Positions 2,825 to 58,526 of a DNA stretch of 64,000 nt are shown one piece after another. The number at the start of each line of letters is the position of its first letter. Within the stretch, counting starts at the first letter, position 1. Source of the stretch: Opitutales bacterium (lineage in GTDB: Bacteria; Verrucomicrobiota; Verrucomicrobiia; Opitutales; UBA2987); NCBI GenBank assembly GCA_965226885.1, contig CBDDEL010000016.1:887195-951194 (forward strand). Reading direction: 5' to 3'. The notes under the pieces were generated by a model. It did not search any database, was not told the DNA's origin, and saw nothing but the letters and a program-made list of their open reading frames with translations. The position numbers were made by a program, and so were the translations under genes.

Positions 2825-4324
2825 GTGCCTGATTGGGGACGAGCATTACAGTTTCCAGACCATGGCTTATCTTCTGCCCGATCTGTGATATTGACCCGCC
2901 TAAACTCATTGATGCGTTTAAAACTGCAACCACACCGGGTAATTTGGAGCCTCTTTTTGGGCATAACGCCGGTTGCGGCGGAAAAACCTGAAAAACCAAA
3001 CATCGTCTTTATCATGGCGGACGACCTTGGTTACGGGCATCTCGGGTGTTATGGGCAAACAAAGATTCGTACTCCCCATATTGACCGTTTGGCGGCGCAG
3101 GGAGTTCGCTTTACCGATGTCTATGCCGGAGCTCCCGTTTGTGCGCCTTCACGGAGCGTATTGATGACGGGTCTGCATGGCGGGCACACCCCGGTGCGCG
3201 GAAACAGCGGCGGGATTCCTCTGCATCCGGGAGATATCACGATTGCTGAACTATTGAAGGAGGCCGGCTACTCCACCGGGTTGTTTGGTAAGTGGGGGCT
3301 GGGGGAATTCGGAACCGATGGAGTTCCCTGGAAGCAGGGATTCGATGAGTTTTTCGGATACCTCCACCAGTATCATGCGCACTTCTACTATCCAGAATAC
3401 CTTTGGCACAATGATCGCCGTTACCCTTTGCCGGGTAATTTGGACGGCCAGAGAGGGCAATATACCCACGATGAAATTGTTGCCAAGGCGATGGGCTTTA
3501 TTCGAGACCATCAGGAGGAACCATTCTTCCTCTATCTGCCTTTTGCCGTGCCTCACTATGAATTGTTGGTTCCGGAGGGTTCCCTCAAGGAATATGCCGG
3601 CAAATTCCCGGAAACGCCTTACGAAGGCCGGGGCAGGCCGACGGGTTATCCGAGCGATTATGCCAAACAACCTATGCCTAAAGCGGCCACGGCGGCCATC
3701 ATCTCTCACATGGACAGAAGTGTTGGTAAAATCATGGATCTGTTGGGCGAATTGAATCTCGATGAAGAGACAATCGTAATCTTCACAAGTGACAACGGCC
3801 CCGTGGAAGGAGCCGCCGATCCTGATTTTTTTGAAGCCAGCGGTCCGCTTCGGGGTTATAAACGCACTCTCTACGAAGGAGGCCTGAGAGTTCCCGCGAT
3901 CATTCGTTGGACGGGCAAAATCCAGGCTGGAACAGTCAACCGCACTCCCTGGCATTTTGCCGATGTTTTGCCGACTTTAACCGAAATAGCCGGTAGAACC
4001 ACTCCTGAAAACATCGATGGCAAATCTATGTTACCGCTCTTGCTCGGATCGGAAAATCCGGTTCAAGTGGAGGATCGAGTTTTCTATTGGGAATTTAGAG
4101 GCGCCGCTGCCATCCGATATGGAAAGTGGAAGGCGATTCGTCCCATACAACCCGATGCCCCGGTCGAATTATATGACCTTTCTACCGATATCTCTGAAAA
4201 CAATAATGTGGCGGATGATTATCCTGATATTATTGCAAAGCTTATCCCGATTCTGGAATCGGCCCACCTCGACCCGCGTCCCCAAATCGAGCCGGAACCG
4301 CCAGCCGATAAACGCTTCAGGTGA
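2825..4324 (+). CDS. Arylsulfatase (formylglycine-dependent, Cys type); true start probably near 2912
   Basis: KPNIVFIMADDLG, CAPSRSVLMTG (CxPSR), GKWGLG, FTSDNG and YEGGLRVP motifs. Confidence 0.92.
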   Translation: MPDWGRALQFPDHGLSSARSVILTRLNSLMRLKLQPHRVIWSLFLGITPVAAEKPEKPNIVFIMADDLGYGHLGCYGQTKIRTPHIDRLAAQGVRFTDVYAGAPVCAPSRSVLMTGLHGGHTPVRGNSGGIPLHPGDITIAELLKEAGYSTGLFGKWGLGEFGTDGVPWKQGFDEFFGYLHQYHAHFYYPEYLWHNDRRYPLPGNLDGQRGQYTHDEIVAKAMGFIRDHQEEPFFLYLPFAVPHYELLVPEGSLKEYAGKFPETPYEGRGRPTGYPSDYAKQPMPKAATAAIISHMDRSVGKIMDLLGELNLDEETIVIFTSDNGPVEGAADPDFFEASGPLRGYKRTLYEGGLRVPAIIRWTGKIQAGTVNRTPWHFADVLPTLTEIAGRTTPENIDGKSMLPLLLGSENPVQVEDRVFYWEFRGAAAIRYGKWKAIRPIQPDAPVELYDLSTDISENNNVADDYPDIIAKLIPILESAHLDPRPQIEPEPPADKRFR

Positions 4325-4346
4325 TAAGATGTGCCTGCCTTTTTGA

Positions 4347-5969
4347 TCACTCTACTATTTCCAGACTGATGTATTTATAGGGATGCCAGTCGAGGAGGTT
4401 GGGATGCCAGTTTTTTACTTCGGGGCGGATGAGGTAGGCGTTGACGTAGAAGTAGAGGGGGATGATGGGGGATTCCTGGAGGAGGAGCGCTTCGGCACCG
4501 GCAAATAATTGCAGGCGTTCGGATGGGTGGCCGTGGCCGGTTTGGGCTGCCTGTTTAATTAAATTGTCGTAAAGGGAGTTTTTCCAGCGGCTGTGGTTAT
4601 TGCCGGAACCGCTGGTCCAGATTTCGAGAAAGGTATTGGGATCGTTGTAGTCGCCCACCCAACTGGAGCGGGCGATGTGAAAATCCCCGTTGTTGCGCGA
4701 GTCGAGGTAAACCTTGTATTCCTGGTTGCGCAATTCGACCCGGATGCCGAGGGCGGTCTTCCACATTTGCTGGATCGCTTCGGCCATGGCTTTGTTGTTT
4801 TCCGAAGAGTTGAATAATAGCTCTAAATGGGGAAATCCTTTTCCCTGCAGAAAACCGGCTTCGGCCAGTAAACGACGAGCCTCTACGGCATTTTCCACAA
4901 TCCGGTCTGCAGGGGCCGGGGCGTATCCGCCCGTTCCGGCGGGAGTAAAATGATACGCCGCCAATTGCCCTCCGGCCTTGACATGTTCAACCAGGCTGCG
5001 GCGATCGAGGGCCAGGCTGAGCGCCCGCCGCACCCGGACATCGTCCAGCGGCGCGATTTCCGTATTGAGCAGGTAATATTCCGTGCCCAGATACGGATCG
5101 AGACGAAGGAAGGGAGAATTCTCCCGCCTATAATGGCCCAGTTTGGTCGATGGCACGGTCTCGGTGACATGCAATTGACCCACCTTGAAAGCCAATTCCT
5201 CGGTATTGAGGTTCTCGATGGGGTAAAACCGGATTTCCTCCAATCGAACCGTGGCCGCGTCCCAATAAAAAGGATTCCTTTCCACCCCGACCACTTCATT
5301 AACCCTCCATTCCTTGAGACGAAAGGGCCCGTTTCCCACATGGGATCTAGCCTGCGTCCAGCCTGTGGCGCGTTCATCGGCGGCGCCGTGGCTGAGCAAT
5401 GTTTTTTTGTGCACTGGATACCAGGCCGGATGCATGAGCAGGGAAAGGAAGTAGGGCGTCGGTTCCACCAATGTAAGCTCAAGGATAGCGTCGCTAACGG
5501 CAACCGCGCCCACCTGCGAAAAATCTTCGATTGCGTCGGCATGAAACGCTTCGGCATTTTCCAGGACAAAAAGCAACCCGGCGTTGGCCGCGCCCAGTGC
5601 CGGGCTGAGCATCCTTTTAAAAGAAAAAATAAAGTCACGGGCCGTGAGAGAGTCGCCGTTGGACCACCGCGCTTCTTTTCGCAGGTAAAAGGTGTAAATC
5701 CGTCCATTGTCCGAAATTTCCCACTTTTCGGCCACACCGGGAACCGGGCTGAGATCCTCGGGATGCGGGCTGACCAAACCCTCGAACAAGGCCATGTGGA
5801 TATTGATTTCGGAAACGCCGGTGGTCGTTTGAGGGTCGAGATCGGCCGGTTCGACCTGATTGCCCAGGTGCAGGATTTGATGGCTATTGCCGTGCTCGAC
5901 CGGTGTTTCCCTTTTGGCGCAACCTGCCAACAGAACTGCCAGCAAGACTGCCCTCAGCGCAATTTTCAT
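4347..5969 (-). CDS. oppA: Oligopeptide ABC transporter substrate-binding lipoprotein
   Basis: Lipobox LLAGC. SBP family 5 motifs LDPQ, FEGLV, YTFYLR...WSNGD, GNGPFRL and WVGDYNDPNTFL. Confidence 0.9.
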   Translation of the reverse strand: MKIALRAVLLAVLLAGCAKRETPVEHGNSHQILHLGNQVEPADLDPQTTTGVSEINIHMALFEGLVSPHPEDLSPVPGVAEKWEISDNGRIYTFYLRKEARWSNGDSLTARDFIFSFKRMLSPALGAANAGLLFVLENAEAFHADAIEDFSQVGAVAVSDAILELTLVEPTPYFLSLLMHPAWYPVHKKTLLSHGAADERATGWTQARSHVGNGPFRLKEWRVNEVVGVERNPFYWDAATVRLEEIRFYPIENLNTEELAFKVGQLHVTETVPSTKLGHYRRENSPFLRLDPYLGTEYYLLNTEIAPLDDVRVRRALSLALDRRSLVEHVKAGGQLAAYHFTPAGTGGYAPAPADRIVENAVEARRLLAEAGFLQGKGFPHLELLFNSSENNKAMAEAIQQMWKTALGIRVELRNQEYKVYLDSRNNGDFHIARSSWVGDYNDPNTFLEIWTSGSGNNHSRWKNSLYDNLIKQAAQTGHGHPSERLQLFAGAEALLLQESPIIPLYFYVNAYLIRPEVKNWHPNLLDWHPYKYISLEIVE

Positions 5970-7783
5970 TTCTTACCTGCGACCCATTCGCGGATTATCT
6001 CATTGAGCACGTCGAGGGGCATCAGGCCATGCCCCAACACCTGGTCGTGAAACTCCCGCACGTCAAATCCGCTGCCCAGCTCAACGGTGGCGTAACGGCG
6101 CAGTTCCTTGATCTTGAGTTCGCCCGTTTTGTAGGCCAATGCCTGCCCGGGCCAGGAAATGTAGCGGTCCACCTCGACCGTAATATTCTTTTCCGTCAGG
6201 CCGGAGTTTTCCTTGAAAAAATCAATGGCGGCCTGCCGGCTCCAGCCGAGGGCATGCATACCGGTATCGACCACCAGCCGGATGGCCCGCCACATTTCGT
6301 AGGAGAGCTGCCCGAACTTGGAATAGGGGTCCTGGTAAAATCCCATTTCCTCCCCCAGAGATTCCGAATACAGGCCCCAACCCTCTCCGTAAGCGGTGAT
6401 CCAGAGGTTTTTGCGAAATTCGGGCAAACCTTCCAGTTCCTGCGCAATTGCGATTTGCAGGTGGTGGCCGGGCACCGCTTCATGCAGGGAGAGCGATTCC
6501 ATCTCGAATTTCGGTCGCGATTTCAAATCGTAGGTATTGGCGAAAAAATTACCGGGACGCCCCGCCAGTAGCGAACCGGGGCGATAATAGGCTGTGGTCT
6601 GCGATTTCGCCATATATTCGGGCACTTCCACCACCCCGTAGGGCAGGCGCGGAAGGGCCCCGAAGATTTTGATTAATTCGGGATCGGCCCTCTTGCAAAT
6701 GGCCCTATAAGCCGTCATAAGGTCCTCGGCCTCATCAAAGTAAAACTGCGGATCAGTGCGCAGAAAGGCCAGAAATTCTTCGCGCGTGCCCTCGAAGCCG
6801 GTCTTTTCGATGACTTTCTCCATTTTCCCCCGGATGCGTTTAACTTCGCTCAATCCAATCCGGTGAACCTCCTCCGGCGAGCGATTGCTGGTGGTGTGTT
6901 TTTTAACCGCAAAGGCGTACCATTCCCGTCCGTTGGGCAGGGCACTCCAGCCGATCGCTTCCCGGCACAGAGGCATATAAGTGTTTTCCAAATAATCGCC
7001 GAAAGCCAGAAAGGCTGGATTGACGGTTTCGAGAATAACCGTTCGGGCCTCTAGCAGGAGCTTTTCGCGAATTTGCGGATCGATGGATTCGGGCAAGTCC
7101 TTAAACGGCAGCCAAAGCGGATTTTTTTCCAGGTCGAAGGCCGCGGTAGCCCGGATTTCTTCCGGAAAATTAACCAAAGTGATTCTGGCCGGGGTAACTC
7201 CCAGGGCCGAATAATGCTCCATCACCGATTGCGCTTCACCGAGCAATTGCGGGACTCCTTTGAGGCGGGCTATGATGTTGGCAAAATCCTCCTCCTGGCG
7301 CGCCGGCATTATGGCGAAGGTGTTGGGAATAGTCTGGGTAACGCTCTGCATGTAATTGACCGGCATGGAAGCGAATTCGGGCGGAAAGCGATAGCCTTCA
7401 ATCGATTGCTGCAGGAGGTAGGCAAAAAGTTTGTAGTTCAGCCGGTCGGCCGTGGGCAGAGAGCCGGGCTCGATGGCATCGAGTATCTCCTTTTGCCGAT
7501 AGGTGGCGTCACGTTGACGTTCCTCCGCCTCCAGGCTCAATTCGTGCCAGCGGTCGTTGTAGCCGGAGCGCCCCAGTTGGGTCGCGAAGACCGGGCTTTC
7601 AAACAAACCATGTTCCCAGGAAACCTCGAAAAGACGGTGCAGCCGTTCCGAGGGGGAGAGTTCGTCCCGATTTTTCAGGAGTCGCTCGTAATCACGGGCA
7701 AACGTTTGGGAACTGGTTTCCGCAAAAAGCGGAATTGAAAAAAACAATATAAGAGCGGAGATACAAAAAAGAGGATATTTCAC
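5966..7783 (-). CDS. DUF885 family secreted protein (putative zinc metallopeptidase)
   Basis: Signal-peptide-like start at GTG 7783. HEAVPGHHLQ, EGWGLYSE and PGQALAYKTG motifs. Confidence 0.85.
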   Translation of the reverse strand: MKYPLFCISALILFFSIPLFAETSSQTFARDYERLLKNRDELSPSERLHRLFEVSWEHGLFESPVFATQLGRSGYNDRWHELSLEAEERQRDATYRQKEILDAIEPGSLPTADRLNYKLFAYLLQQSIEGYRFPPEFASMPVNYMQSVTQTIPNTFAIMPARQEEDFANIIARLKGVPQLLGEAQSVMEHYSALGVTPARITLVNFPEEIRATAAFDLEKNPLWLPFKDLPESIDPQIREKLLLEARTVILETVNPAFLAFGDYLENTYMPLCREAIGWSALPNGREWYAFAVKKHTTSNRSPEEVHRIGLSEVKRIRGKMEKVIEKTGFEGTREEFLAFLRTDPQFYFDEAEDLMTAYRAICKRADPELIKIFGALPRLPYGVVEVPEYMAKSQTTAYYRPGSLLAGRPGNFFANTYDLKSRPKFEMESLSLHEAVPGHHLQIAIAQELEGLPEFRKNLWITAYGEGWGLYSESLGEEMGFYQDPYSKFGQLSYEMWRAIRLVVDTGMHALGWSRQAAIDFFKENSGLTEKNITVEVDRYISWPGQALAYKTGELKIKELRRYATVELGSGFDVREFHDQVLGHGLMPLDVLNEIIREWVAGKK

Positions 7784-16964: not shown

Positions 16965-17600
16965 ATGGATGAATTGACATTGCGACAGCAGGAAATTTTG
17001 GGTTATCTTCAATTGCATATGCGGGTGCACGGGACTTGGCCGAGCTTTCGGGAGATTCAGGCCCATTTCGGGTTTCGCAGCACCAACGCCGTCATGGGGC
17101 ACCTCCGCGCGCTCGAGAAAAAGGGCCATATCAGCCGTGTGCCGGGGCAGGCCCGCACCTTCCGCATCACGATGGACTTTAATGAGGAAAACCAACCCGC
17201 CGAGGCCACCGATGTGGTCGATATCCCCATCTACGGTAGCATTGCGGCCGGTTATCCGGACGGGGTCGAGCCAGGCGGGGAAATCGGCCGCCTACAGATT
17301 GATGCGGAAACGGCCGGCATCCGCCGCTCGCGCCACGCCTTCGCCCTCAAAGTGCGGGGAGACAGTATGGTCGACGCCGGCATCTTCGATGGCGACATCG
17401 TTATCATGGAAAGACGCCCGCCCTACAACGAAGATGTGGTGGCCGCCCTCATCGACGGGGAGACGACTCTCAAGCGTTTTATACGAAAACGCGGCAAAGC
17501 CCCCTACCTCAAAGCGGAAAACAAAGACTACCCCAAACTCCACCCGGTGGCCGAACTGATCATTCAGGGCGTGGCCAAAGCCGTCGTCCGCAATTTGTAG
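16965..17600 (+). CDS. lexA: SOS repressor LexA
   Basis: LTLRQQEIL...PSFREI...HLRALEKKG helix-turn-helix, IAAG cleavage site, GDSM catalytic Ser, TTLKR catalytic Lys. Confidence 0.95.
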   Translation: MDELTLRQQEILGYLQLHMRVHGTWPSFREIQAHFGFRSTNAVMGHLRALEKKGHISRVPGQARTFRITMDFNEENQPAEATDVVDIPIYGSIAAGYPDGVEPGGEIGRLQIDAETAGIRRSRHAFALKVRGDSMVDAGIFDGDIVIMERRPPYNEDVVAALIDGETTLKRFIRKRGKAPYLKAENKDYPKLHPVAELIIQGVAKAVVRNL

Positions 17601-17640
17601 TGCTGGGCACGATGCGAGATAGTGGATACTTGATGCAAGC

Positions 17641-17729
17641 TTGTTGATTAGTTGGGTACAAGGTTTGTTGATTAGTTGGGTACAAGGAGGTGCAGTCAGG
17701 GAGGTGCAGTCAGGGAGGTGCAGTCAGGG
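17641..17729. repeat. Adjacent short tandem repeats (2 x 24 bp and 3 x 14 bp)
   Basis: TTGTTGATTAGTTGGGTACAAGG at 17641 and 17665; GGAGGTGCAGTCAG at 17686, 17700 and 17714. Confidence 0.9.
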
Positions 17730-17828
17730 CATGGTTTTTCAGGGTCGATTCCTGAAACCCGACACCTGACACCCGAAACCTTTTTTTCCGCGTCCCCGAT
17801 CCGGCCGATATATAAAAAGTGTACAGAC

Positions 17829-17860
17829 AAAAGGCCCGGTCTCCTTGCGGAGGCCGGGCC
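17829..17860 (-). terminator. Intrinsic terminator closing the putative large ncRNA
   Basis: Minus strand GGCCCGGCCTCC-GCAA-GGAGACCGGGCC followed by TTTT. Confidence 0.8.
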
Positions 17861-18745
17861 CCTTGAAAGTTTGGAATGTCGTTCGCCACACGCTCTTTCC
17901 AAGTGCTGGCATTGGGCGCTTTCGATTGCTCGGAAGCTGCCAGCTCCCCGACGCTATTCCACGCGGCAACACGCGATTGTCGGTCTCATAGCAGGACCGT
18001 CGCCCCAATTGCTCCGGACGATTCTCAAGTGAGGCCTCTCGGCAGGGTTCGACCCGTGTCTGCCGACACCGGTGCGCCCTACTTGGAGCAAAACGCCCTG
18101 CAATAGGCTTTCTGCTCCTTCTGCCCGAGGGTCGGCCCGCAGATGGCTCCGCGGCGTTGGCCCCCGGTTACGGGTCTGACCTCTTAGCTCTCAGGATACT
18201 TTTCGCATTGCAGAGCGGTCGATGCGGTTTTTCACACCGCCCGCACTTTTTCGGAATTCACCAGGCTCAGCTTGCACTGATCCTCGTGCTCTCCCCGCCT
18301 CAAGGTGGCTTTTTCGTGCCTCCGGCGCTTGGCTTTCGGAGGCCTTGCGGCGAGTTTGCCCTCGCCAGTTCACCTTGATCGGACTGGTCTTCATGGTAGC
18401 ATCCACGGCCCGTTGCCCGGGTCACCTTGTCGTCCTTCCTGATGATGCAAGCATCCTCAAAACGAACTCACTCAGCTCGCCGCTGGAACCATTATTACAG
18501 CGGCTCACTGCCGCGTTCCGCATTTCGTCAGGGCGCGAACCCCGGCGGCGGAACGGGTGGAATATGCCTCTTTCCCCATCGGCGAATCTCCCGAAAGAGT
18601 TCCTGTGATGGTTCCGAAGGAGTCAGGCCCACCAGTTCTGGCCCGACTTTTGCCCGGTTTCTCAACCGGGAGTATCTTGAGACTCTCCACCGCCTTGGTC
18701 CGAAAACCCCGGCGGCGAATTGCCATATTTCTTCCAAAGAACTGC
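17861..18745 (-). ncRNA. Candidate large structured non-coding RNA (~850-900 nt; possibly MISL-like)
   Basis: No credible ORF. Dense GC-rich hairpins carry GNRA/UUCG loops when read on the minus strand. Own promoter upstream and terminator downstream. Confidence 0.72.
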
Positions 18746-18750
18746 CCATA

Positions 18751-18778
18751 AGATTGGACAGAAAAAAAGACTTGTCAA
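18751..18778 (-). promoter_or_regulatory. Sigma70-like promoter for the candidate ncRNA
   Basis: Minus strand TTGACA (18778-18773)-16 nt-CAATCT (18756-18751), with AT-rich sequence upstream. Confidence 0.55.
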
Positions 18779-19041
18779 ATAAAAAGTGTCCTAAAACACT
18801 GCAAAAGAACAAGTTGTGAATAAGTCGACTTTTCCATGTGAGCGTTTTGCGAACAACTGCGCATCCCTCCCAAACAGAGTCATTTAGAATTGAGGACAAT
18901 CGCCCACCCCCTATCGTGAATAACGCTTTAAACTTACCATCGCAAAAAAAAGTTTAAGTTTTTTTTATTTTTTTATTGTTTTTCCAAACAAGGATCACGT
19001 GCCATAATCATGAGTTTCGGGATTTTAAAAATCTTAATCCA

Positions 19042-19278
19042 ATGACCCCTTTACGATTATTACTGGTTATTTGTTTTTTCCTCGTGGCATCCGTGCCCTG
19101 GTTTTATGTCGGGGCTTCCAGTGTTTCCGATGAGGGATTGCCGAACTGGGCTTTGCATGGATTTGTAAGCATGTTTCTTTTCGCAATTTTCATCGCTTAC
19201 GCATTGAAAAAATATTGGGCCTTAATGGCAGGAGATGAAGATAATCCGCAAATAGAGAAAGAAAATAATGACGGGTGA
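19042..19278 (+). CDS. Small two-TM membrane protein, partner of the sodium:solute symporter
   Basis: SVPWFY...GLPNWA pattern; overlaps the start of the symporter gene. Confidence 0.7.
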   Translation: MTPLRLLLVICFFLVASVPWFYVGASSVSDEGLPNWALHGFVSMFLFAIFIAYALKKYWALMAGDEDNPQIEKENNDG

Positions 19279-20749
19279 TGCTGCCATACTGGACCGGGGC
19301 GGCATCCTGTTCGTGGGGAGTTACCTTTTCATCCTGATCGGTTTTGGCGTTTGGGGCCGATTTGCGCGTAAGGAGAAGAGCATGGATGATTTCTACCTGG
19401 GCGGTAGGAATTTCGGGCCTTTTGTCCTTTTGATGACACTTTTTGCGACTCAATACAGTGGAAATACGTTGATAGGCTATGCGGGACGGGCCTACCGGGA
19501 TGGCTTTCAATTTATCATGGCCCCCATGTTTATGATGATGGTAATCGGTGGTTACCTCTTCTACGCCCCAAAGCTTTACCGGCTTTCGGCCAAAAAAAGG
19601 TATGTCACCACATCCGATTTTCTACAGGATCGCTTTAATTACCGTCCGTTGTCTTTATGGGCCAGCGGATTGGGCATGGTTGCGTTATGCAACTACATTT
19701 TAACCAACCTGCTGGCCATCGGGCTTTTGGTCGAGACCGCCTCAGGTGGGCGGTTTGTCATGTGGCAGGGCATTCTCGCCTTGTCCATTATCATGGTTTT
19801 ATACGAAACACTGGGCGGCATGCGCAGCGTAGCCTGGACGGACGTGGTGCAAGGGATTCTTCTATTATCCGGCTGTGTGATTATATTTATATTCCTCAAC
19901 CTCCATTTCGACTCCTACAAAATTTTATCAGTCGATGTGAAAGCCAATTATCCAACCTTTTGGGATTCTCCCAACTGGAGGGAGAAGCTTGGTTGGTTGA
20001 GCACGCTTATTATGATCGGATTGGGGATATCGGTTTATCCCCATGCGGTGCAGAGGGTTTACGCCGCCCGCAGCGAAGCGACATTACGGAGTACGCTGCA
20101 GGTGATGGCGTTCATGCCCATCGTGACCACTTTTTTCATTATTTATGTAGGTTGGATGGGTAGCGGCCTGCTGCCCGGACTGGAGAGCGACAGGGCTGCC
20201 ACTGATCGCATTTCTCTGCACATGATCCAATTGCTGGCGGTGGAAATTCCCCAGTTCAAGATTTTCATGGTGGTCTTCCTGGCGGCAATCATCGCCGCAA
20301 TCATGTCCACAGTCGATTCCGCGCTTTTGAGTCTCTCCTCTTCGATGACCAAAGATTGGTATCAATTGATTAAACCAAAAACCTCCCAGGCCCAGCTGGC
20401 CATGGTGGGCAAAATCCTTTCCTGGATTCTAATGGGCGCCATGGCTTTGCTGGCAATACAGTCCGAAAGCACCATTTTTCGTTTGCTTGAGATCAAGCTG
20501 GAATTGCTACTGCAGGTGGTTCCGGCCATATATCTGGGAGTTCATACCAAAAAATTAAGCGGCCGGGCTGTATTTGCGGGTATGGTAGTCGGGACCGTCG
20601 TTACGGTTGTGTTTTTGGTGGCCCAAAAACTGGGCGCGCCGATTCCGGCCAAACCTTTGGGTATTTACGCAGGCGTCTGGGGATTTGGCCTGAACCTGAC
20701 CGTGCTGGCGGCGGTGGCAAAATTTTCACCTGCGAAATTAACTCGATAA
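19268..20749 (+). CDS. Sodium:solute symporter family protein (PanF-like)
   Basis: DFYLGGR, ATQYSGNT, GGMRSVAWTDVVQG and AAIMSTVDS motifs; many TM helices. Confidence 0.9.
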   Translation: MTGDAAILDRGGILFVGSYLFILIGFGVWGRFARKEKSMDDFYLGGRNFGPFVLLMTLFATQYSGNTLIGYAGRAYRDGFQFIMAPMFMMMVIGGYLFYAPKLYRLSAKKRYVTTSDFLQDRFNYRPLSLWASGLGMVALCNYILTNLLAIGLLVETASGGRFVMWQGILALSIIMVLYETLGGMRSVAWTDVVQGILLLSGCVIIFIFLNLHFDSYKILSVDVKANYPTFWDSPNWREKLGWLSTLIMIGLGISVYPHAVQRVYAARSEATLRSTLQVMAFMPIVTTFFIIYVGWMGSGLLPGLESDRAATDRISLHMIQLLAVEIPQFKIFMVVFLAAIIAAIMSTVDSALLSLSSSMTKDWYQLIKPKTSQAQLAMVGKILSWILMGAMALLAIQSESTIFRLLEIKLELLLQVVPAIYLGVHTKKLSGRAVFAGMVVGTVVTVVFLVAQKLGAPIPAKPLGIYAGVWGFGLNLTVLAAVAKFSPAKLTR

Positions 20750-26765: not shown

Positions 26766-27431
26766 ATGACCGAAATCCAATTCCCTCTCATCATGCTTGC
26801 GGCCGGTAAGTCGTCGCGCATGGGTGAGCCCAAGGGGTTGGTCAGCGTGGGGAAACGATCACGACCTTGGATCGAGATCCAGTTGCGGCGGTTTGCCCAG
26901 GCCGGGGGGAGTAGAGCGGTGGTTGTTCTTGGTTATAACCGGGAAAAATATGCCGAAAAACTACCCTGGTTGTGGGGAGACAGAATTCAGGCGGTGGAAA
27001 CCGGCCTGCCTGGCATATATCCGGTTGTAAATCCAAAACCTGAGAGAGGTCCATTTTCATCCCTCATGGAGGGGTGGCATTTATTGCGAAAAAAGCGGCC
27101 TGGATCGCCAGCCTATATCTTGCCGGTGGATGTGCCTTGCCCGCTGGGAAACGTATTTCAGGCCTTAAGCAATGCCCTTGAACCGGGCATTGAAGTCTGC
27201 GTTCCGTTTTGCCAGAACCGCGGGGGCCATCCGGTTTTGGCGACCTCTTCCTTTATGGAAAAATTAGACTCATTACCCATCACGGACCCGAATTCCCGTT
27301 TGGATTGGCAAATAAAAACCCTGGCCCCTGAAAGCATATGCAATGTCCCGGTCGAGGAAAAACTTGTCCTCTTGAACATGAATCGAAAAGAAGATTTCCT
27401 GGCCGCAGGGTGCTGGATCGAAGAGCTTTAA
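26766..27431 (+). CDS. MobA/MocA-like NTP transferase (molybdenum cofactor cytidylyltransferase)
   Basis: LAAGKSSRMGEPKGL, NPKPERGPFSSL, PVDVP, GGHPV and LNMNRKED motifs. Confidence 0.8.
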   Translation: MTEIQFPLIMLAAGKSSRMGEPKGLVSVGKRSRPWIEIQLRRFAQAGGSRAVVVLGYNREKYAEKLPWLWGDRIQAVETGLPGIYPVVNPKPERGPFSSLMEGWHLLRKKRPGSPAYILPVDVPCPLGNVFQALSNALEPGIEVCVPFCQNRGGHPVLATSSFMEKLDSLPITDPNSRLDWQIKTLAPESICNVPVEEKLVLLNMNRKEDFLAAGCWIEEL

Positions 27432-27464: not shown

Positions 27465-28535
27465 ATGATTACGGAAGACATGATTCGCCGAGCTCCCAAA
27501 GTCCAATTGCACGACCATCTGGACGGTGGTTTGAGGCCGCAAACGGTCATCGACCTGGCCAAAGATATCGACTACAAGGAACTGCCAACAACCGATCCCC
27601 AGGCTTTGGGGGACTGGTTTCATCAAGGGGCCAACAAGGGAAACCTGGTCGAATACCTGGAGGGCTTCGTCCATACCTGCGGGGTCATGCAGACCAAGGA
27701 TGCCCTTGTGCGGGTGGCCTACGAAATGATGGAGGATATGCACCGGGACGGGGTCTGCTATATTGAGACTCGCTTCTGCCCGCACCTGCATACGGAACAC
27801 GGCCTTTATTCGGAGAAAGTGGTCGGCTATGTTCTTGAAGGGCTGGAAAAGGGAAAAAGAGATTTCGGCGTCGAATACGGGTTGATTATTTGCGGTTTAA
27901 GAAACATGAGGCGATCGCTCGAAATGGCCGAGTTGGCCGTCAATTTCCGCAAACAGGGGGTGGTCGGTTTCGATCTGGCGGGAGAGGAAGGCGGCTATCC
28001 ACCCAAGGAACACCTGGATGCCTTTCAGTTTATCAAAAGGGAAAATTTCAGCATCACGATTCACGCCGGGGAAGCTTTTGGCAAGCAATCCATCTGGCAA
28101 GCTATCCAGTATTGCGGAGCGCACCGGATCGGCCACGCCACCCGCCTGGTGGAAGATTTCGGCTACGACAAGGAGGGCCGGGTCGTTTCCCTGGGACCAT
28201 TGTCGCAATATATTCTGGACAAAAGGATTCCCCTTGAGATTTGCCTCCTAAGCAATATTCACACCGGCGCTGTGGATAAAATAGAGAACCATCCCTTCGG
28301 AGAGCTTTTTCGCATCGGATTCAGGGTTTTTCTTAATACGGACGACCGGCTGATGAGCGACACCACCTTGACCAACGAATACCTGATTGCCTCGAAGGTC
28401 TTCGGTCTGGACCTGGATAAAATCGAAAAGCTGACCATAGACGCCATGAAATCCGCCTTTTGCTTCCACAAGGATCGATTGAGAATTATTTATGACACTA
28501 TCAAACCGGGTTTTCAGCAGTTGCGTGAAAAATAA
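27465..28535 (+). CDS. add: Adenosine deaminase
   Basis: PKVQLHDHLDG, FDLAGEE, TIHAGE, RIGH and NTDDRL motifs. Confidence 0.92.
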   Translation: MITEDMIRRAPKVQLHDHLDGGLRPQTVIDLAKDIDYKELPTTDPQALGDWFHQGANKGNLVEYLEGFVHTCGVMQTKDALVRVAYEMMEDMHRDGVCYIETRFCPHLHTEHGLYSEKVVGYVLEGLEKGKRDFGVEYGLIICGLRNMRRSLEMAELAVNFRKQGVVGFDLAGEEGGYPPKEHLDAFQFIKRENFSITIHAGEAFGKQSIWQAIQYCGAHRIGHATRLVEDFGYDKEGRVVSLGPLSQYILDKRIPLEICLLSNIHTGAVDKIENHPFGELFRIGFRVFLNTDDRLMSDTTLTNEYLIASKVFGLDLDKIEKLTIDAMKSAFCFHKDRLRIIYDTIKPGFQQLREK

Positions 28536-57762: not shown

Positions 57763-58526
57763 AGGAAGAAAAAAACCAGCTGCTGTTACACCATCACCTC
57801 AAGAAACTGAAGTTGCCCACCATCCTGCGCGAATGGCCGGCGGTGGCCGCGGCTTGTTCCCGGGACCGGCTCGATTACGCCGCCTTTTTGTTGCATCTGG
57901 TCGAACGGGAGCTCATTGAACGCGAACAGCGGGCCGCCCAGCGGCGGATCAAAAACGCCCGTTTCCCCGTGCTCAAGACCCTCGAGAGCTTCGCCTTTGA
58001 AGCGCAGCCCTCGATCAACGAAGCGCTCATCCGAGAGCTCATGCGCGGGGAGTATGTCGACCAGCGCGAAAACGTGCTGCTCCTCGGTAACGCCGGTACC
58101 GGTAAAACGCACCTGGCCACCGCCCTGGGCTTTGCCGCCTGTGCCCAGGGCCGGCGGATCCGTTTCTTCGGGGTCACCGCCCTGGTTACCCATATGCTCG
58201 AGCAACGCGACAACCACGACCTGCAGCGCTTCATGAAGCAACTCGAAAGGCTCGACCTACTCATCCTCGACGAACTCGGTTACGTCCCTTTTTCCAAGAC
58301 CGGTTCCGAACTGCTCTTCGACGTGGTCAGCCGCGCTTACGAGCGCACCAGTCTCATCGTCACCACCAACCTGCCCTTTGAGAACTGGATCGAAGTGCTC
58401 GGTTCCGAACGGCTCACCGGAGCTCTGCTGGACCGACTCACCCATCGGGTGCATATCCTCGAAGCCAACGGGCAAAGCTACCGCTTGCGCGATGCTCGAC
58501 GCCGTCGCCGTGGCACAAAACAATAA
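57759..58526 (+). CDS. istB: IS21 helper ATPase IstB
   Basis: GNAGTGKTHLA, LLILDELGY, TTNLPF and LLDRLTH motifs. Confidence 0.93.
   Translation: MKEEKNQLLLHHHLKKLKLPTILREWPAVAAACSRDRLDYAAFLLHLVERELIEREQRAAQRRIKNARFPVLKTLESFAFEAQPSINEALIRELMRGEYVDQRENVLLLGNAGTGKTHLATALGFAACAQGRRIRFFGVTALVTHMLEQRDNHDLQRFMKQLERLDLLILDELGYVPFSKTGSELLFDVVSRAYERTSLIVTTNLPFENWIEVLGSERLTGALLDRLTHRVHILEANGQSYRLRDARRRRRGTKQ

Follow-up and report, generated by a model that had tools for sequence, protein, structure and literature searches.

A full-length MISL RNA gene beside lexA in an Opitutales genome, with a boxA-like leader word and a near-identical second copy

What is encoded in the gene-free gap between lexA and a symporter operon in the genome of an Opitutales bacterium of the phylum Verrucomicrobiota? 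The stretch that we analysed (the window) comprises 64,000 nucleotides of contig CBDDEL010000016.1, and an earlier note, made from its letters alone, had seen no credible open reading frame (ORF) in this gap. The note proposed that the minus strand encodes a large structured RNA, complete with promoter and terminator and either MISL-like or new, and ranked it as the best candidate for an undescribed system in the window. A scan of the whole window against Rfam returned one match above a curated cut-off, the MISL RNA (RF03079), on the minus strand only (Table 1). The match is full length, from model position 1 to 751 of 751 with neither end cut off, and scores 367.5 bits with the covariance model against a gathering cut-off of 274.6 (E 1.6e-109). 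A permissive scan of positions 17500-19100, with E up to 1, found no family besides MISL. By the earlier note's own reasoning a strong MISL match makes the RNA a known family, and the locus is therefore a member of an already known family and not a new class or system. We conclude that the gap is probably a stand-alone MISL RNA gene with a primary transcript of about 0.9 kb. The note's observation is thus confirmed and its interpretation partly supported: the large structured minus-strand RNA was borne out, and the family that it had named, MISL of Verrucomicrobia, is the right one by the full-length match and by the record titles described below, whereas the suggested newness and the undescribed system fall away.

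A protein product was weighed against an RNA product. ORFs of 49-130 amino acids lie on both strands of the region, including one of 73 amino acids that starts with ATG in the leader at 18726, and these could be taken to encode one or more small proteins. Of 57 aligned relatives, however, no more than 2 to 25 keep a given frame inside the RNA open, and insertions and deletions leave the length unchanged modulo 3 in 11 to 28 of them, where about 19 are expected by chance. The substitutions, moreover, are compensatory for helices. No reading frame is conserved across the 57 relatives, and the probability of a small-protein product is negligible.

The fold was examined in MISL loci gathered from relatives of the window genome, from a sample of the phylum and from a pattern scan with one genome per species. 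They included 83 complete units, of which 58 (less than 88% alike) were kept and aligned from leader to terminator with MAFFT; the consensus structure is an RNAalifold prediction on this alignment and not the Rfam seed. It contains 223 pairs in 44 helices. In the consensus, 90.2% of cells are paired against 75.4% in shuffles. Both sides changed in 171 of the 223 pairs; shuffles gave 121 +/- 4, and none of 500 equalled the observed number. The covariation score was 0.441 and fell to 0.07-0.11 after the partners were slid by one to three columns. These figures favour structure to some degree, as the structure was drawn from the same alignment on which it was tested; given the slid controls and the number of pair types, the structural case is still strong. 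The single-sequence fold of the 914-nt unit has a z-score of -5.32 (20 dinucleotide shuffles). A long-range pairing joins GAGAG..AAGAGG with CCUCACUC through helices 26 and 27, which are paired in 98% and 94%, respectively; helix 27 varies hardly at all.

The covariation across the 58 sequences also bears on the individual helices that had been proposed from the window sequence. Ten quoted helix arms each read exactly as written, letter for letter at their positions. Of the nine internal helices, five are shared by the family: those at 18670-18653 (5 of 7 pairs), 18504-18479 (6 of 7), 18118-18085 (8 of 9) and 18021-18000 (7 of 9) are in the RNAalifold consensus, and the helix at 18366-18349 is present in the Rfam alignment. 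Three others, at ~18700 (where the leader hairpin has its tip), 18599-18588 and 18280-18267, are absent from the consensus although the single-sequence fold contains them, and are lineage-specific tips or insertions. The helix UCGGCAG/CUGCCGA at 18066-18039 was rejected as being in the wrong register, since covariation favours 18083-18041 and 18072-18053 there. The tenth proposal, a pairing of the two ends of the transcript (UUCGCCGC with GUGGCGAA), forms eight contiguous pairs here but is not conserved: a pairing of the leader with the GUGGCGA loop exceeded shuffled leaders in 2 of 50 relatives, with a mean run of 5.46 against 5.21.

MISL was reportedly first described in the supplement of Weinberg et al. 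2017. The term "MISL" is absent from the main text of PMC5737381, and the papers covered by a literature search on MISL gave only the use of this RNA as a chemical-mapping example (Ribonanza) and no boxA-like leader in print. We found MISL in 16 of 41 genomes of a set of relatives, the window genome (G000) included; among the 40 relatives proper, it occurred in 0 of 11 genomes of 2.0 Mb or less versus 15 of 29 larger ones. In a sample of the phylum, 9 of 151 genomes were positive, and 8 of these 9, again including the window genome, belong to the window's own order; 14 control genomes gave 0 matches. A pattern scan with one genome per species recovered at least 117 stretches, 116 of which were confirmed by a hidden Markov model built from the first hits. 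Among 80 record titles listed, nearly all carriers were named as Verrucomicrobiota groups, the exceptions in these 80 being two isolate assemblies (Stutzerimonas and Serratia), four metagenome-assembled genomes (MAGs) labelled otherwise and one "bacterium". The Stutzerimonas record (L068) is an 858-bp scaffold that consists almost entirely of the MISL gene, most likely a contamination, and mis-binning is probable for the four MAGs, which are labelled Bifidobacteriaceae, Sulfotelmatobacter or Saccharimonadales. One relative, G008, has a second match (L019, G008:C2:1594012-1594372) that covers only model positions 389-750; the sequence upstream of it still resembles the middle of MISL, so that it looks like a diverged second copy and not half a gene.

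The RNA was also found in RNA libraries. Ten of the public runs containing the block are recorded as RNA, and four metatranscriptomes from four studies were compared with the locus. Their contigs from the MISL locus lie on 17881-18725. In run X2, an 823-nt contig matches 17934-18725 with 0 differences at a word depth of 2,499; the contigs of X8 and X10 have depths of 1,356-1,756 and 3,917-7,618, and an 822-nt contig of X13 has a depth of 20. In these four runs the flanks at 17400-17868 (lexA side) and 18740-19400 (symporter side) are uncovered, save for an X10 piece at 17735-17801, an absence that is not evidence in itself. Such contigs reveal neither ends, strand nor level, and RNA libraries can contain DNA; the presence in these libraries is consistent with an abundant, discrete RNA.

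Upstream of the RNA body, a conserved word resembling boxA was found. In its loose form, GTTC-N-TTGA-N-AGAAC, this word was present in 87 of the 90 full-length loci for which 150 nt or more of upstream sequence was available, with a median distance of 59 nt to the Rfam start. The strict form GYTCNTTGANA occurred within 170 nt upstream of 80 of the 90 MISL genes, against 4 matches in the remaining 676 kb of the same loci. The window genome has 9 sites of GTTCTTTGRAA where 4.3 are expected: two at MISL copies, one in the 16S leader, one in the 16S-23S spacer and five inside long ORFs. The leader word of its ribosomal RNA (rRNA) operon (rrn) lies 135 nt before the 16S rRNA, and such a leader word (126-138 nt before 16S) together with a spacer word was found in all 11 genomes examined, the window genome and ten others. 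Leader and spacer are where boxA classically lies. The window word GTTCTTTGGAA matches the genome's own rrn word GTTCTTTGAAA at 10 of 11 positions, and the family consensus word GTTCNTTGANA matches GYTCTTTAANA, given as the gamma-proteobacterial boxA consensus in PMC5725501, also at 10 of 11. Positions 4 (C) and 6 (T) of the MISL word are invariant in 87 of 87 loci, and the equivalent positions were those reported as mutated to inactivate the boxA of Escherichia coli suhB (PMC5725501). In one relative, G187, the rrn leader word and the MISL word both carry the rarer A at position 5. Because the rrn leader and spacer carry the same word, and genes for NusB and Rho are present in the window genome, we read the word as a putative boxA that would recruit a Nus-factor complex, which points to antitermination of a long untranslated transcript. 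Separately, two open frames of 408 amino acids (G000:C9:131151-132374 and G000:C16:546545-547768) bear GTTCTTTGAAA with identical flanks (61 bases) and look like a repeated gene.

The leader word is embedded in a complete transcription unit (Table 1). The TTGACA promoter of the earlier note holds for the -35, and its placement is supported comparatively: 63 of 87 loci had a best -35/-10 score of 7 of 12 or higher, versus 3 of 91 random control anchors. The predicted -10 ends 7 nt ahead of the boxA-like element in 48 of 87 loci. Between the word and the Rfam model, which begins at 18677 and so leaves it outside, lies a leader hairpin whose outer helix pairs 18727-18723 with 18683-18679 below a lineage-specific UUCG-capped tip; all 5 of its outer pairs changed on both sides. 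This rRNA-type leader word with its covarying hairpin is an addition of the present analysis; the Rfam model omits both, together with the 3' tail and the terminator. In the 3' tail, helix 38 is weakly supported, with 81% of cells paired and one pair changed on both sides. The terminator had been described as a 12-bp GCAA-capped hairpin with a U-tract. Its hairpin and loop stand, and the consensus helix (17860-17833) covaries, with 8 of 8 pairs changed on both sides, but there are actually 11 pairs with a C.A mismatch, and the tract has only four U. The terminator scan did not list it because the U run is shorter than the rule of that scan.

Table 1. Positions of the MISL gene and its associated sequence elements in the window
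Feature	Position	Strand	Basis or remark
MISL RNA body (RF03079 match)	17878..18677	-	Rfam, covariation, RNA-library contigs from four studies
boxA-like element GTTCTTTGGAAGAAA / GUUCUUUGGAAGAAA, about +2 of the predicted transcript	18728..18742	-	Comparison across loci
Sigma-70-type promoter: -35 TTGACA 18778-18773, 17-nt spacer, -10 AATCTT 18755-18750	18750..18778	-	Sequence and comparison
Leader hairpin, between boxA-like element and Rfam model start	18679..18727	-	Covariation
3' tail beyond the Rfam model	17861..17877	-	Able to close the last hairpin by pairing: UUGGAA...UUCCAA in the window, UGGG...CCCA among relatives
Intrinsic terminator: 11 pairs and one C.A mismatch, GCAA loop, UUUU	17829..17860	-	Sequence, fold, covariation
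DnaA-box-like word TTATTCACA (proximal), with its start 81 nt upstream of the boxA-like element	18815..18823	-	Motif search
DnaA-box-like word TTATTCACG (distal), differing from TTATNCACA at one base and lying 100 nt further upstream than the proximal word	18915..18923	-	Inside the block duplicated on contig C14
Duplicated block, 1174 bp, with its second copy at G000:C14:615117-616289; DnaA-box-like words, promoter, leader, RNA and terminator	17801..18974	.	99.4% identity

Upstream of the promoter, words resembling DnaA boxes were frequently observed. In 45 of 87 loci the 160 nt ahead of the leader word contain TTWTNCACA, where shuffles expect 0.9; a control on the RNA body gave 0 of 87. Of the hits ahead of the leader word, 24 begin 80-89 nt upstream of it, which is a preferred distance. 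Only 82 sites of TTATNCACA occur in the whole genome, and 2 of them are at the two MISL copies. As a sequence, then, a DnaA box TTATNCACA is present at a conserved position near the promoter, and DnaA may bind there. The rest of the window holds just one more perfect TTATNCACA word, TTATCCACA at 28271-28279 on the minus strand, and on the scale of the window the count is at chance level. A replication origin at this place was considered and rejected: the GC skew does not turn between 16 and 20 kb of the window, and the dnaA gene is on another contig (C15). A frame of ~270 amino acids with a weak Bac_DnaA/AAA+ match (36.5 bits) occurs in ~70 copies over the contigs, including window positions 58071-58367 (G000:C16:945265-945561), and may encode the helper ATPase of an insertion sequence present in many copies.

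The whole unit is present twice in the window genome. The duplicated block differs from its counterpart on contig C14 by 6 mismatches and 1 indel, all outside the Rfam-matched part, and the flanks are unrelated. The C14 copy has the same covariance score as the window copy and a GUAA terminator loop in place of GCAA. Two copies 99.4% alike in unrelated flanks, and the position of MISL at contig ends in several relatives, as is seen with repeats, might suggest a selfish or mobile RNA element of an intron-like, retron-like or transposon-guide kind. A second species of the genus, however, carries its two MISL genes at sites orthologous to both of these, and the flanks of the two species are 84-88% identical; the 1174-bp block holds no protein gene, and no recurrent transposase or reverse transcriptase was found among 189 flanking ORFs. 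In addition, no MISL match was obtained in 50,697 phage records or 72,556 plasmid records, and the permissive scan of the locus revealed no second Rfam family. We regard mobility as very unlikely. Because paralogues within a genome are more alike (99.5% in the window genome and 98.5% in the second species, G004) than orthologues at syntenic sites (89-91%), the pattern is that of concerted evolution by gene conversion, as in rRNA operons, and not of recent transposition.

Comparative analyses of the neighbouring genes were performed by Pfam scans of the nearest long ORFs around the MISL loci, 95 upstream and 94 downstream. No family-wide neighbour was found among them, and synteny is clade-specific only; recurrent neighbours are an HrpB-like helicase (16 loci), cysteine-synthase-type PALP enzymes (13), EF-G-like GTPases (6), purA (3) and an SSF symporter (3). 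The absence of a family-wide neighbour gene suggests that the RNA acts in trans. In the window, MISL is convergent with lexA and divergent from the small-ORF/SSF-symporter operon, and an SSF symporter lies upstream in three loci, so that an action in cis or antisense on these neighbours, for example in the DNA-damage response, was a conceivable role. LexA, however, is downstream of MISL in 1 of 94 loci, that of the window; the same-genus orthologous copy also lacks a downstream LexA domain, and the C14 copy is located between folC and purA. The strong, covarying terminator would moreover end transcription 229 nt before lexA. A search with at most one mismatch for TGTTC-N4-GAACA, which we take to be the LexA-box motif of Verrucomicrobia, gave one chance-level match in the window, at 27365, and none near MISL. 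The linkage to lexA suggested earlier was thus not upheld, membership in the SOS (LexA) regulon was rejected, and an action on the neighbours is highly improbable, slightly more so than mobility.

A link to HrpB was also rejected. The divergent upstream DEAH helicase is found in 16 of 95 loci, all with an Opitutaceae-type leader; HrpB matches occur in 35 of 41 relatives, MISL-negative ones included, and five MISL-positive genomes have none or a weak one. Because the distribution of HrpB does not follow that of MISL, the adjacency reflects local synteny and not co-occurrence. In the window genome, the best HrpB-like match (G000:C14:533012-535582) falls into three segments in succession, which cover profile positions 1-448, 475-772 and 760-808; the gene may thus be frameshifted or broken. 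On the symporter side of the window locus, a small ORF at 18976-19278 (up to 100 amino acids, no NCBIfam match) overlaps the start of the gene of an SSF-family sodium:solute symporter (19268-20749), and this pair is transcribed divergently from MISL. On the other side, between the lexA stop and the MISL terminator, there are perfect tandem repeats of 24 nt x 2.0 (17641-17687) and 14 nt x 3.1 (17686-17729), followed at 17751-17781 by a looser array of CCTGAAA with a 7/14-nt period; the repeats at 17641-17781 lie outside the block shared with C14.

How might such a unit work? From the arrangement of its elements we propose that the sigma-70-type promoter, standing behind the DnaA-box-like words, would start transcription about one base before the 15-nt boxA word. 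The nascent boxA would then recruit NusB-S10 and other Nus factors, as in rRNA operons, and RNA polymerase would become resistant to Rho over ~0.8 kb of untranslated RNA that folds during its synthesis. The covarying leader hairpin would be followed by the 800-nt multi-helix body, and the intrinsic terminator would close the unit. The product would be a stable, abundant, trans-acting RNA, most likely the core of a ribonucleoprotein (RNP) or a self-folding scaffold without regulation of neighbours, and the two copies would be held identical by gene conversion like rRNA operons. Taken together, we put forward tentatively, as a possibility and with doubt, that MISL is made like rRNA, with a DnaA-tuned promoter, a functional boxA that gives a Rho-resistant and folding-competent polymerase, and gene-converted copies. 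In that case it would be a "stable RNA" of free-living Verrucomicrobiota, hitherto not recognised as such and coupled to growth or replication, and a new RNP core or ribozyme, not a regulatory small RNA (sRNA) as its Rfam type has it.

Several observations weigh against this proposal. The window word matches the gamma-proteobacterial consensus at only 9 of 11 positions and differs from the genome's own rrn boxA at position 9. Covariation between rrn and MISL words by lineage is seen in one genome (G187) and is absent in four genomes of the Opitutaceae type, in which clade MISL has C at position 5 and both rrn words have T. The MISL loci also keep an extra AGAAC (positions 11-15) that is missing from the rrn sites, and because this part is conserved, the MISL element is not simply the rrn boxA but resembles an imperfect GTTC-N7-GAAC palindrome. 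The word sits at the very start of the predicted transcript. No contig of the four runs reaches it, the furthest ending at 18725, which would mean that the leader may be removed or that the start may lie elsewhere. The -10 is weak, with 3 of 6 consensus matches, for which reason the promoter was not listed by a consensus scan. As to DnaA, perfect TTWTNCACA is limited to the 45 of 87 loci given above, and the dnaA gene of the window genome itself shows no cluster of strict DnaA boxes by which the motif could be calibrated.

The main rival to Nus antitermination follows from some of these same points. The GTTC-N7-GAAC word could be a DNA site, such as the operator of a dimeric regulator, a promoter element or an initial-transcribed element, with control by a repressor and no antitermination. 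Between 79 and 87 of the 87 loci retain the outer half-sites GTTC and GAAC, the word overlaps the predicted transcription start, the rrn words are without the GAAC half, and the RNA-library contigs stop short of the word, all of which would fit such a site. The symmetry expected of an operator is nevertheless poorly kept: position 5 varies between C, A and T (38, 25 and 23 loci), yet 86 of 87 loci have A at position 11, its mirror, and position 10 is A in only 41 of 87. The first 11 bases, furthermore, equal the word of the 16S-23S spacer, where no promoter lies, in 11 of 11 genomes. We therefore consider a DNA operator unlikely, although less so than any other rival, and continue with the word as a candidate boxA.

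Compared with the family as described in Rfam (RF03079, typed "Gene; sRNA"), the RNA of the window shares the helices, the long-range pairing and the phylum, and its body differs only in lineage-specific hairpin tips. Comparison with rRNA operons reveals both likeness and difference. In rRNA operon antitermination (boxA with NusB, NusE/S10, NusA, NusG and SuhB), as in MISL with its predicted promoter, a near-identical 11-nt word follows the promoter ahead of a long, untranslated, structured RNA, and MISL likewise is multi-copy and apparently kept uniform by gene conversion; boxA has a reported role in Rho resistance and rRNA folding (PMC4807359, PMC6614801, PMC5725501). Unlike an rRNA operon, MISL does not yield rRNA, and its word has the extra conserved AGAAC and sits at the extreme 5' end of the predicted transcript, whereas in the window genome a few dozen bases separate the rrn word from a -35-like hexamer, TTGACG, upstream of it. 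The MISL leader pairs with itself; a leader-trailer helix was not found.

Use of boxA outside rRNA has precedents. Stringer et al. 2020 are said to have described a boxA-dependent protection of CRISPR arrays from Rho. A functional boxA was reported in the 5' untranslated region of suhB, and the survey in that paper, by its own account, left non-coding RNAs out (PMC5725501). Both precedents come from Proteobacteria, and the RNA in question is an mRNA leader in one and a repeat array in the other, whereas MISL is a single large folded RNA. Among large RNAs, OLE, GOLLD, ROOL and raiA are, like MISL, large or abundant and restricted to lineages, with ornate covarying structures and unknown or emerging functions, and they have no sequence or Rfam relation to it. 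GOLLD and ROOL often occur in prophages, in contrast to MISL with its lack of phage and plasmid matches, and OLE has associated proteins, whereas MISL has no conserved partner gene among the flanking ORFs. GOLLD, ROOL and OLE are reported to form RNA-only multimers in cryo-electron microscopy (10.1101/2024.12.08.627333), and raiA RNA reportedly reaches the abundance of rRNA and tRNA in one species (PMC12968392).

Large structured bacterial RNAs are few, and those that are understood are ribozymes, RNP cores or self-assembling cages; among them, MISL is an orphan. To this family the present analysis adds the rRNA-type leader word with a covarying hairpin, double copies that appear to be gene-converted, and comparative support for the DnaA-box-like words upstream. 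The regulatory layout, the two copies and the high representation in environmental RNA libraries may ease the study of MISL. The layout predicts a high, growth-linked expression and offers point mutations by which this can be tested, at positions 4 and 6 of the boxA-like word and in the DnaA box. If the boxA is functional, MISL would illustrate that Nus-factor antitermination can serve a structured RNA other than rRNA, and can do so outside Proteobacteria.

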